The position numbers were made by a program, and so were the translations under genes. From Octopus vulgaris (Eukaryota): 64,000 nucleotides of DNA. The first letter of the stretch is position 1. Each line of letters begins with the position of its first letter. The stretch lies in assembly GCA_951406725.2 (NCBI GenBank), contig OX597826.1:1922001-1986000 (forward strand), written 5' to 3'. The notes under the pieces were generated by a model that did no database searches, was not told where the DNA came from, and worked only from the letters and a program-made list of their open reading frames with translations. Below, one piece after another: positions 2,485 to 10,520 of this stretch.

Positions 2485-2534
<50 letters not shown>

Positions 2535-3148
2535 ACATGTATAAATATACATGTATACATATATAAATATATATATATGTAATCATAAATGTTAAAAAGA
2601 AAACTAGAAGGAATATATAAAAAAATATTTTAAATGAAAGTATTAAAGAAATATTATCCAAAGTAAAAATGGAATGTAATAAATATATTAGTATGTAGCA
2701 GAAAGATGTATATTAACTGCTGAATATGTATACATACGTGCGTGTATACATATATTTATACATACTTTTATGTATATATGTATATATATGAAATATCTAT
2801 GCAAATAATATTTTTATTTGAATATATATGTGCATATATAAACACAAATATATTCATATAGATATATTTATTCATATATATACACACACAAACACATCTT
2901 TTGCAGATTTCATTTTAGAAAATATACGTAATATTATACAGATGTATATATATATATATATATGTATTATTTACATATATATATGTCATTTATAGATATA
3001 TATGTATATATATATGTTATTTATATATATATTTAAAATATATATATATATATATATATTATTTACATATATATATATACTCGCACATACACGCACGTCT
3101 ATATATATATAGATATTTGAATAAATCTATCTATCTGTCTATCTATAT

Positions 3149-3199
<51 letters not shown>

Positions 3200-3275
3200 C
3201 ATACATGTATGCACATATCACCTTTTTATCTATGTCTATATATATTTTTATACGTTATCATTGTCATTATCATTG

Positions 3276-3349
<74 letters not shown>

Positions 3350-4389
3350 GTTATTATTATTATGTATTACAATAAAACGTAGTACTGTAATAGAAGATTT
3401 CTATATGATGGCGGAGCAAGTAGTACTTAAGCTTAAATCCTTGATCAACGTAGAAGCTTCACCTACTTGAAAATATCAATGTCAATACATACATTCATAC
3501 AAACATACATTCATACATACATTCATACAGACATACATGCATACATAAATCTACATGTATATATATATATGTGCGTGTGTGTGGTGTGTGTGTGTGTGGT
3601 GTGTGTGTGTGTGGTGTGTGTGTGTGTGTGTGTGTGTGTGGTGTATGTATTTAAATGTATTTAAAAAATAGTTGGAAATGACGAGAGAAACGCGTCAAGT
3701 ATCAGAGTTAATAAACAGTAAAAGAAAAACAAGAAAAATGAAATTAAAAAAACCCATTTTTCATAGAATTAGTTTGGATCATTGAAAATTTGCTGAAAAT
3801 AACAAGAGCAAAAAAAAAGAAAAAGAAAAGGATAAAAAGGAACCCGTAAAAGAAAAAAAATAAACAGATCAGAATAAGAAATAGAGAAAATGGTATCAAA
3901 AGCTAAACAACTTTTTCAGGTTTTGCTGAGAATTTTATGTTAAAGTAAGTCGGTCATACAAATATCCTTGCAGATATCAAAAATAACAAAGAAGCTTCTC
4001 TGTGGTCACTCAACCAGCTAGAAATAGCAGTGAAGTGAAGTCTCATTAAAGTCACATCATAACGTTGTTTTAAAATAAAATGGCATTTGGTGTTTTTAAG
4101 ACCGTTGGGTGTGATTGTACAGAGAACAAAGTCTATATGAAGTAGTACGCTGTATAGCAGACCTTCGTTTATTGGTTTCAGTCATTGGACTACGGCCATG
4201 CAAGTGCACTGTCGTGAAGGGTTTAGTCGAACAAACCAATCTAAGTGCTTCCTTTGTTTTGACAAAGACTTGTACTTACTCTATCATTGTTTTCGAACTG
4301 CTAATGTTAGGGTTGGGGCAAGCACAAAGATGCATGCAATTAAAAATACACACATACCTATATATATATGCATATACAGACATTCATAG

Positions 4390-4439
<50 letters not shown>

Positions 4440-4462
4440 ATGTATTTACATATGTATATACA

Positions 4463-4626
4463 GGCGCAGGCGTGGGTGTGTGGTAAGTAACTTGCTTACC
4501 AGCCACATGGTCCCGAGTTCAGTCCCACTGTGTGGCAACTTGGTCAAGTGTCTTCTACTATAGCCTCGGGCCGACCAAAGCCTTGTGATTGGGTTTGGTA
4601 GACAGAAACTGAAAGAAGCCCGTCGT
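4463..4626 (+). mobile_element. SINE family A 5' half, ending at its (TA)n tract
   Basis: Matches 579-740. Confidence 0.85.
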
Positions 4627-4640
4627 ATATATATATATAT

Positions 4641-4935
4641 AACTGTGCATTATAATCACATGATTTCGGCTTCAGGATCATTGCGACTCACCTTGGACAT
4701 ATTTTGTTCTGACCAACAACTTGTAAGTGAATCATGAAAATGGAAACATATACATATATGTATATATACATATATGTATATATACATATATACATATATA
4801 TATATATGTTTCCATTTTCCATATTCACTTACAAGCTCTTGGTCAGCTGTTCTCCCCGGGTCATAAGAGAAAAAATATGTCCAGGTGAGTCGCAATGATC
4901 CTGAAGCCGAAATCATGTGATTATAATGCACAGTT
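4641..4935. repeat. Fold-back inverted repeat around a TA-rich core
   Basis: AACTGTGCATTATAATCACATGATTTCGGCTTCAGGATCATTGCGACTCACC... at 4641 is the reverse complement of ...GGTGAGTCGCAATGATCCTGAAGCCGAAATCATGTGATTATAATGCACAGTT ending at 4935. Confidence 0.9.
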
Positions 4936-4992
4936 CTTAACAACACACCTCTGCTCACCTGCAAAAATGAACAAAAAACCCAAACAAACATA

Positions 4993-5154
4993 AGCGCAGG
5001 TTTGGCTATGTAGTAAGAAGTTTGCTTCCCAACTGCAAGGTACTGCGCTCAGTCCCACTGCGCGTGGCACCTTGGACAAGTGTCTTCTACTATAGCCTCG
5101 GGCCGACCAAAACCTGTGAGGGAATTTGTTTGGCGGAAACCGAAACAAGCTAGT

Positions 5155-5225
<71 letters not shown>

Positions 5226-5520
5226 GTATGTGTGTGTGGTGTGTGTGTGGTGTGTGTGTGTGTGTGTATCTATATGTGTGTGCATGCATGTGTCATTGTG
5301 TCTGTGTTTGTCCCCCCACTACCACCTGACAACCGATGTTGGTGTGTTTACGTCCCCGTAAGCTAGCGGTTCGGCAAAAGTAGATAAAATGGGTAGCAGG
5401 CTCGAAAAAATAAATAAACAAACAAACACTAGGGTCGATTCGTTCGACTTAAAATTCTTCAAAGCGGTGCCCCAGCATGGTCGCAATCGAATGGCTGAAA
5501 CAAGTAAAAGATAAAAGAGA
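4993..5520 (+). mobile_element. SINE family A, full length
   Basis: Same head, internal (CA)n and 3' end as 579-1010. Confidence 0.9.
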
Positions 5521-8877: not shown

Positions 8878-9351
8878 TATGTGTGTGTGTGTGTGTGTGT
8901 GTATGATTTTTCCATGATTAATCCCTGGACAATATTTGATACTAAACAGAGCGTTAGTATCTGAAGACATTAAAGGCTGGAATGTATCCTATCGCAGACA
9001 TTGTATTGCGCATCGTGCCTCCTTATCCCCAGAGAAATATTAAAATATTCATATATGGAGTTATCTGAATTTCCTCTTTTCAGGAAAATCTAGGAGCTGA
9101 GATCGAACCAGATTAATTGCATTTCAACGAAGGGACACAAAGGAAATTCGTTCACTTGTTTTTGTTGTTGGTTTTTAACCCCAGGTAAACTCTGGTCCAC
9201 AAGACCTATGATAAAAAGGTTTTTACAGAACTGTGACTAAGTATCGTTTCTTGTCTTACCGAACATAGTGTGTCTAGAACTGAAGTGCGTTATTTACATT
9301 ATTTACATTATTTACATTCGACGGATATTTATCCTCATCTTGTTTGTTGTT

Positions 9352-9397
9352 AACACAATGTTTCGGCTGATATACCCTCCAGCCTTCATCAGGTGTC
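9352..9397 (-). ncRNA. Type I hammerhead ribozyme motif (minimal, PLE-type)
   Basis: Minus strand reads GACAC-CTGATGA-A-GGCTG(gagggtatat)CAGCC-GAAA-CATT-GTGTT. Stems I and II pair. The sister arm reads GAAATGTTGTGTT, so the inferred consensus is GAAACGTT (palindromic ACGT stem III, GUU site). Confidence 0.75.
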
Positions 9398-9433
9398 TTG
9401 GGGAATTTTCGAACTTGGTATATTTTTCAATGT

Positions 9434-9520
<87 letters not shown>

Positions 9521-9542
9521 TATTATTATTATTATCGTTCAT

Positions 9543-9611
9543 GTCACTGCTTGGAATCGAACTCGGAATCTTGGGGTTAGTAGCCAGCGCTCTCAACCAC
9601 TACGCCATATG
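9543..9611 (-). other. tRNA-derived Pol III head (SINE-like, not a functional tRNA)
   Basis: TGGCGTAGTGGTTGAGAGCG (A box) and GAGTTCGATTCC (B box); acceptor and anticodon stems do not close properly. Confidence 0.75.
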
Positions 9612-9702
<91 letters not shown>

Positions 9703-9934
9703 TCAGCCGAAATGTTGTGTTAACAACAAACAAGATGAGTAGAAATACCCGTCAAATGTAAATAATGTAAATAATGTAAATAATGTAAATAACGTACATC
9801 ATTCCTCATCTCTTAAATATAGAACTGAAGTATTTCGTATTCAGTGGTTTTTGCTACATATTGATATACAGGCTCACACATACACATACAATTTGCAAAC
9901 ATACGAATGCATACAGTAATGTATATCTACATCT

Positions 9935-10520
9935 GTTATCTTTTACTCGTTGCAGTCATTGGACTACGGCCATATTGGGGCACTGCCTTGAAGGGTTTAG
10001 TCAAACAGATCTATCGGCCTCTTTTGCAGAAATGCTAAGTAACGGGGGACGGAAACAAAGCAACGCCAGTTGTTGAGTAGTAGTGGGGAATAGACTCGAC
10101 ATAAGCATAAAGATATACACACCCTTTGATGGGTTTTGTTTTGTTCAATCACCCTCCTTGCTAAGCAAGATTGGTGGGGGGTTACCAGGTTAGTGGCAGA
10201 TGACCCGACCATACGACAGGTTGTACTGGGTTACATGTTACCAGTAACGCTCGAGAGCGGCCTGACATACATATATACATACATACATACATACATACAT
10301 ACATGCATGCATGCATACATACATACATACATACATACATACATACATACATACATACATACATACATACGTGCATGCGTGCATACATACTTACTATGCA
10401 GATGAGTTTCTATCAGTTTCCGCCCATCAAATCCACCCCCAAGGCTTAGGTCCACGCATCGGGACTGAACCCAAGACCACATGATTGAGAAGCTAGTTTC
10501 TTAAGCAAACAGCCACGTCA
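9935..10520 (-). mobile_element. Degenerate SINE family A with an internal insertion at ~10122-10265
   Basis: Reverse complement of the family A 3' end (CAGTCATTGGACTACGGCCAT) and head (GGGACTGAACCC...ACAGCCAC). Confidence 0.75.

Follow-up and report, generated by a model that had tools for sequence, protein, structure and literature searches.

A tRNA-headed, hammerhead-bearing repeat of the octopus genome as the terminal repeat of an autonomous Penelope/Poseidon retrotransposon

We asked what kind of element occupies positions 9275..9831 of a 64,000-nucleotide stretch of Octopus vulgaris DNA (the window), where a tRNA-like head, a TAA/TTA microsatellite and a hammerhead ribozyme motif follow one another on the minus strand. 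A preliminary description, made from the letters alone, had proposed a separate SINE that parasitises Penelope-like elements (PLEs). We found instead that head, spacer, hammerhead and tail together make up the terminal repeat (pLTR) of an autonomous PLE itself. In structure and origin, the stretch in the window is almost certainly a broken, 5'-truncated, tail-out pair of pLTRs of an autonomous Penelope/Poseidon retrotransposon, with the following features:

9275..9286, plus strand: left target-site duplication (TSD), 12 bp, matching 9820-9831.
9287..9611, minus strand: arm 1, a 5'-truncated Penelope/Poseidon pLTR from the tRNA head to the short (no-tail) 3' site.
9540..9611, minus strand: tRNA-derived head, closest to tRNA-Arg among the 6 isotypes sampled, its cloverleaf lost.
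9607-9597, minus strand: A box, inside the tRNA-derived head.
9564-9553, minus strand: B box, inside the tRNA-derived head.
9433..9539, minus strand: spacer, a TAA/TTA microsatellite; across the family it is mostly (AAT)n.
9398..9432, minus strand: segment carrying the ORF start codon in the family; in the window copy the start codon is gone through a 14-nt deletion.
9352..9397, minus strand: minimal type I hammerhead motif, overlapping the N-terminus of the ORF; predicted cut between 9357 and 9356.
9397-9393/9356-9352, minus strand: hammerhead stem I, 5 bp.
9392-9386, minus strand: hammerhead CTGATGA core.
9364-9357, minus strand: hammerhead GAAACATT.
9287..9351, minus strand: N-terminal coding sequence of the ORF, including a 9-nt repeat in frame; the inner 3' end, likely the inner reverse transcriptase (RT) start site, falls in this region.
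9609..9827, plus strand: arm 2, an inverted pLTR piece, joined to arm 1 by the ATG microhomology 9609-9611.
9790..9827, plus strand: PLE 'tail', an optional extension of 30-40 nt present on one arm only; in longer copies it runs on into the ORF.
9820..9831, plus strand: right TSD, whose first 8 nt (9820-9827) are also the element's own 3' end.

Most of what had been described in these letters was borne out. The A and B boxes lie on the minus strand as claimed, the type I hammerhead with its CTGATGA and GAAA cores is present at 9397-9352, and the minus strand carries no T4 run from 9611 to 9287, in agreement with the proposed lack of a TTTT terminator. The inverted, truncated arm placed at 9700-9795 exists, being complementary at 93% over 84 nt, but its true extent is 9609-9827: it consists of the end of the head, an (AAC)n(AAT)n spacer, an internal deletion, the 3' half of the hammerhead from 9700 and the long tail to 9827. 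The repeat noted at both flanks is a 12-nt direct repeat, but its right copy is in part the element's own end (see the list above). The TGTAAATAA repeat, read as the end of a SINE, is instead in-frame coding sequence (VNN). The window hammerhead has an extra A before stem II and the ACGT of its stem III has decayed to ACAT; neither arm of the window retains the palindromic ACGT. The interpretation of the arms as products of CpG decay was right, because the family majority reads GAAACGTT (C in 38/46 and G in 34/42 arms, which were unselected for the ribozyme). Since arm 1 has neither the ATG nor the ACGT palindrome, the window copy is dead. In the spacer of arm 1 (9433-9539), five TAA units give way to TTA units, a departure from the usual (AAT)n that may reflect a micro-inversion. 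Another very abundant short repeat, unrelated to the PLE, lies at 9932-10077 of the window and in about 20 other places.

Rfam and ARAGORN matched neither a tRNA nor a hammerhead in the window, in an ORF-linked copy or in a metagenomic relative (L332, see below); head and hammerhead were assigned by motifs, by folding and by comparison with the tRNA genes of the host. The sample comprised 30 host tRNA loci of 6 isotypes, Ser and Leu not among them, and the best local match of the head in it was tRNA-Arg(TCT), with z=9.8, and the joint A+B motif has a chance probability of 0.4%. By this comparison the head is tRNA-derived. The window hammerhead shares the architecture of the minimal ribozymes of PLEs, which have a short helix I, a long helix II and an unpaired base before helix II (PMC4209133, in the text available), and its core is conserved in the family majority.

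In the 2.8-Gb host genome, an exact 22-mer of the hammerhead occurs 7,569 times and one of the head 4,844 times (reversed controls, 0 each), whereas a 22-mer located some 60 nt before the head motif has only 889 exact matches. Head and hammerhead co-occur in fixed order, as the preliminary description had anticipated: besides the window's own, 24 of 29 head-seeded loci have a hammerhead segment on the same strand within 600 bp of the head. The other five have different sequence after the AAT spacer, LINE-like in at least two. The AAT spacer was repeatedly struck by LINE 3' ends (L032, L034, L044, L271 and L292), which from their motifs we take to be Dong/R4-like; these insertions inflate the apparent length of the element. 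A repeat survey (PMC13282606) lists both Penelope and Dong-R4 families, and its available text does not describe a tRNA-headed PLE family.

The autonomous partner was reached through a GIY-YIG-like fragment adjoining one head-seeded match. Its unit is ordered as head, AAT spacer, ATG, hammerhead, tail, an ORF of about 830 aa encoding RT and GIY-YIG endonuclease, stop, about 35 nt, and the head again. The proposal to look for the same terminus in autonomous PLEs thus proved fruitful: in 27 of 29 loci found with endonuclease DNA as the seed, six of them near-identical copies from an array, the ORF stop gives way to the head through a single fixed junction. The same holds for 20 of 21 protein-seeded loci in which the ORF end is present. 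The pLTR includes the ORF start and the minimal type I hammerhead. From the ATG directly past the spacer, a reading frame crosses the hammerhead and then the 9-nt repeat, and the tail continues in frame into the ORF (L138). The N-terminal translation of the family can be aligned to the N-terminus of an 847-aa homologue known from a different source. L280 and L295 have head, hammerhead, tail and ORF in that order, and L279 and L282 are partial tandems; in all four the head also lies upstream of the ORF start.

The RT upstream in the ORF matches Pfam RVT_1 (E=8e-10), and L303 retains an open stretch of 569 aa. The endonuclease was recognised by tblastn with a PLE that is positive for Pfam GIY-YIG (E=0.001), plus its motif; the Pfam GIY-YIG profile itself had no match in the family and reached only E=0.23 in the homologue P0005, and a PDB sequence search gave weak RT matches only. 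The linker from RT to endonuclease has no extra Zn-finger, and the endonuclease is not N-terminal. A Zn-finger between the two domains marks Neptune and Nematis, and an N-terminal endonuclease marks Naiad and Chlamys (PMC8557442, available text). By the linker criterion of that work the family is Penelope/Poseidon, as judged from its sequence, because no extra Zn-finger precedes the endonuclease. No GT-AG skip was seen among the listed RNA-read joints, with low read depth over the ORF. Searching with P0005 for sister families returned the same family in all 30 loci retrieved, and a first metagenome scan and a viral scan found no relative. The P0007 cluster holds homologues at 52-69% identity from other sources, and one cluster with barnacle members hints at possible horizontal transfer. 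Contig C31 carries near-identical PLE fragments with common flanks over several megabases (L094, L096, L104, L111, L119 and L120), that is, a large segmental or tandem array.

Other PLE-like repeats turned up beside the family. A genome search with Pfam GIY-YIG, rejected as a route to the element, retrieved mainly a different PLE family, which lacks the tail in question and is termed Neptune-like here on account of an extra CxxC motif. This Neptune-like family (L067, L072 and L086) is young, with many intact 781-aa frames and 3' tandem repeats rich in ATTGG/TGACGTC; a scan within its loci found no hammerhead. Another GIY-YIG PLE family has a hammerhead-like motif about 600 nt past the stop (L064:2377) or 230 nt past it (L088, minus strand, about 2000 nt from the end). 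A second hammerhead-like short family (CTGAAGA...GAAAC; L029:1850-2000 and L087:30-250) is inverted palindromic, unrelated to the octopus pLTR and probably the end of another PLE.

The insertion footprint was analysed on contig 1 from the first 100 exact matches to the hammerhead; these fall into 88 loci, in which a few segmental duplicates are left. Two outward-pointing arms were present in 44 of the 88 loci. Among 45 tail-out pairs, 42 combined one long tail with one short end, three had two short ends and none had two long ones. Direct repeats of 9 nt or longer (one mismatch allowed) were present at the ends of 40 of 52 pairs and of 6 of 52 control windows; TSDs of the family measure 9-15 bp. 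An inverted 5'-truncated copy, a tail at one end and a TSD are the footprint known for PLEs (PMC3846280, PMC8557442, in the portions available), and the attribution of the window insertion to Penelope-type machinery holds, as it too is a tail-out pair with one long tail and a TSD. In reference coordinates, the 3' ends of the family fall at about 140-163 and 180-195, the predicted hammerhead cut at about 94; the hammerhead likely does not define the ends of the element.

The tail-out pairs also fit the results on PAc, for which the available text reports that both strands are cut and extended, that two RT start sites set the tail and that the template is uncleaved RNA (PMC11167929). By analogy with this biochemistry, the enzyme would nick both target strands and prime reverse transcription at two adjacent positions of uncleaved RNA; microhomology would then join the resulting cDNAs (PMC11167929). 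The longer arm may be either the long-tail or the short-end one, and pairs split about evenly. Because either arm can extend further 5', the data favour two priming events over simple fold-back, and simple fold-back from the long-tail arm was rejected. The arms of one pair share 12 of about 170 non-CpG changes (random pairing gave 4.3, with a maximum of 11); with so few in common, neither arm is a recent copy of the other.

A promoter motif derived from a tRNA opens the pLTR, and the element is therefore possibly read by RNA polymerase III. Pol III normally yields short non-coding RNAs only. We lean slightly towards the reading that the head is an internal Pol III promoter of the PLE, with Pol III starting there; that the full-length coding RNA would be Pol III-made as well we regard as doubtful. 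Transcription would start about 10 nt upstream of the A box and would so regenerate the promoter in each copy. RNAs from a 3' or solo pLTR would be short, would include the RT start sites and would act as a built-in SINE, which would explain the excess of copies beginning at the head; such a SINE-like short Pol III RNA from the pLTR is possible. That excess is clear in the sample: 38 of 100 arms anchored by the hammerhead 22-mer reach the head start, and 24 of these 38 end at -13..0. The rate of arm ends per 10 nt is 0.71 at the head start, 0.05 inside the head and 0.01 in the ORF, and two ORF-bearing copies begin at 0 and -3 (L280 and L295). The 2,911-nt majority sequence of the family (coverage of at least 25; unit of about 2.9 kb) has no T4 run on the sense strand, where shuffling predicts 5.3 and permutation of synonymous codons 2.9 (P=0.026). 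A second PLE family of equal T content has 6-8 T4 runs per 2.4 kb. The T4 deficit is modest. G4 is also absent from the majority sequence (shuffle 3.4; codon permutation 1.0), and LINE-like ORF pieces from the same loci, classed by eye, have 8 T4 runs in 8.3 kb versus 14.3 expected.

A second lineage bears on the same point. L332 (JGI1357J11328_10009043), from another organism (metagenome), is an intact Poseidon-type relative with about 40% identity. Its positions 2517-5307 form an exact tandem unit of 2,791 bp (or a collapsed circle), in which a minimal hammerhead overlaps the ORF. Only L332 has an A+B motif of its own between the stop and the hammerhead (chance 1%); none of 11 further PLE 3' regions, two being shorter than 70 nt, had one. 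Eleven of the 12 metagenome relatives were examined (a 71-residue match was left out), and in the matched region L332 has no T4 run, against 5-19 for the ten others. Over its full length the L332 unit contains 2 T4 runs, both inside the ORF, and it avoids C and G runs too. Its head is unlike the octopus head (z=0.2) yet like tRNAs (z up to 4.6), which suggests that a tRNA promoter was captured a second time in this lineage. At 2761-2776 L332 has a histone-stem-loop-like hairpin with a T4 loop, near the contig end in the second copy (Rfam Histone3 E=0.12, below threshold). The most far-reaching reading, in which this group of autonomous PLEs captured tRNA-derived promoters more than once, Pol III makes the coding RNA, terminators were purged from the 2.5-kb ORF and the pLTR doubles as a SINE that makes most copies, we hold to be rather unlikely as a whole.

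RNA reads came from three unstranded runs of one study on a related organism and cannot show start, cleavage or strand; no pile-up of read starts or ends was seen in them, including at the hammerhead cut site. Depth in that organism was about 2-20 over the ORF start versus 1,000-2,200 on the hammerhead-tail segment. The reads are mostly passengers of host transcripts, 77-89% continuing into unlike sequence, and loose read ends join the head to the ORF 3' UTR in the related organism too. Uncapped Pol III RNA is usually poorly translated.

Three other accounts of the repeat deserve weighing. Chance nesting of unrelated repeats in a TAA microsatellite might be imagined, as the spacer does attract later LINE insertions; but order and junctions are fixed both in the 24 of 29 head-seeded loci and in the ORF-linked copies, and this excludes such nesting, the probability of which we put at next to nothing. 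The same regularity contradicts the adverse case that head and hammerhead arm occur independently across the genome. An independent tRNA-headed SINE family that had acquired a PLE 3' end and was mobilised in trans, the heads next to ORFs being SINE insertions into the PLE, would account for the roughly 5:1 preponderance of head-bearing over ORF-linked arms. It might also account for a skew at hammerhead position N7, which is T in 19/24 short versus 13/32 scored ORF-linked arms (P=0.006, in one of 19 columns and between differently seeded sets). Against it, nearly all copies have the ORF end followed by the head at one fixed junction, and the head precedes the ORF start as well (L280, L295, L279 and L282). 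Moreover, short and ORF-linked arms are of the same age (6.4% versus 6.9%), with no fixed variant separating them. We consider this account very improbable and for the most part already contradicted. Loop-inverted hairpins were tried as a sign of second-generation short copies and set aside, being too few and open to production by single substitutions.

The remaining account accepts the same PLE origin and takes the head for a passenger. An old, TAA-tailed SINE of tRNA-Arg type would have been caught in the 3' UTR, and the element would be transcribed by Pol II through tandem read-through or host promoters. The pile-up of 5' ends would then come from cDNA fold-back or annealing at the palindrome directly before the head. 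A hairpin at -22..+12 does overlap the pile-up, and copies ending at -10 nearly all have mirrored bases upstream, as fold-back would give. Rotifer pLTRs for which the available text reports no tRNA head also begin with palindromes, and 5' palindromes of pLTRs and inverted junctions are known in PLEs (PMC3846280). The head with (AAT)n resembles a simple SINE, diagnostic variants are lacking, and the T4 deficit is at P ~0.03 only and partly common to LINEs. However, many of the ends between -1 and -7 abut unrelated flank or an arm lacking the mirror sequence, and simple fold-back needs the long-tail arm always to be the longer, whereas pairs split about evenly. The second lineage also has a different tRNA-like A/B motif in the same position, and no abundant free-standing SINE with this head was found among the head-seeded loci. 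Taken together, this account is quite possible, though below an even chance.

With the repeat read as the pLTR of a coding PLE, its place among known systems can be stated. In the portions of the sources available, the family shares with the Penelope/Poseidon EN+ PLEs Anolis PAc (PMC11167929) and Adineta Pen2a/Pen3a (PMC3846280), and with the scheme of PMC8557442, a single ORF for RT and C-terminal GIY-YIG. It also shares with them a pLTR containing the ORF start and overlapping a minimal hammerhead, a palindrome at the pLTR 5' end, the inverted 5'-truncated copy, a 30-40 nt tail at one end, a TSD of about 10 bp, partial tandems and solo pLTRs. Unlike PAc and Pen2a/Pen3a as there described, the octopus pLTR starts with a tRNA-derived A/B-box head and (AAT)n. 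The internal promoters mentioned in the available text are TATA/Inr-like or LINE-like (PMC3846280; PMC2377424), and a term search of the available text of PMC3846280 found no tRNA. The TRIMp3 elements Helenus, Ajax and Cassandra (PMC10886601) likewise have a small-RNA-derived Pol III promoter in the terminal repeat, with the boxes kept and the RNA fold lost; unlike these non-coding LTR elements, the octopus host element is an autonomous, protein-coding PLE.

The combination of a tRNA promoter with a hammerhead is by itself already published, because schistosome Sm-alpha and Sj-alpha (PMC6765202, PMC2770079, PMC8490949, in the text available) have both a tRNA-related Pol III promoter and a type I hammerhead. 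Sm-alpha and Sj-alpha are SINE-like, non-coding and often tandem, and their ribozyme processes multimers, whereas in the octopus element the ribozyme, a minimal one of the PLE kind, is embedded in coding sequence and likely does not set the ends. Short, pLTR-related, PLE-dependent repeats are also known as non-LTR retrozymes (bioRxiv 10.64898/2026.07.22.740005; PMC7229834) and as non-autonomous Chlamys PLEs such as MRC1 (PMC8557442), as far as the available portions go. Retrozymes form head-to-tail tandems with a ribozyme per unit, have unit ends set by self-cleavage and give circular RNA; the octopus copies are dispersed tail-out pairs inseparable from the coding element, and such pairs dominate the 88 loci, with 3' ends away from the cut site. 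Nor is the repeat a non-coding family apart from its autonomous partner and linked to it by the 3' tail alone, as a SINE would be, for the head belongs to the PLE and the tail is coding. In the literature searched we found no tRNA-headed pLTR of a coding PLE; Repbase, Dfam, the PMC13282606 library, subscription journals and supplements lay outside that search, and the family may be catalogued already in Repbase, Dfam or similar.

The locus itself is an ordinary dead PLE insertion; the pLTR of the family, as far as its sequence tells, carries an unusual, probably functional tRNA-type promoter. If the head were only a passenger, the locus would be an ordinary PLE scar with a curious 3' UTR. At least 7,569 short arms that an annotator would name SINEs in the octopus genome are PLE ends. 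SINEs and autonomous elements are usually split by Pol III and Pol II (PMC10886601, available text), a divide that is blurred when a protein-coding retrotransposon has an internal promoter of tRNA type. If true, the family would offer a natural example of a long Pol III-made mRNA, and it makes promoter regeneration in PLEs testable. A pLTR able to transcribe itself would give PLE-dependent SINEs and retrozyme-like repeats a direct way of arising.
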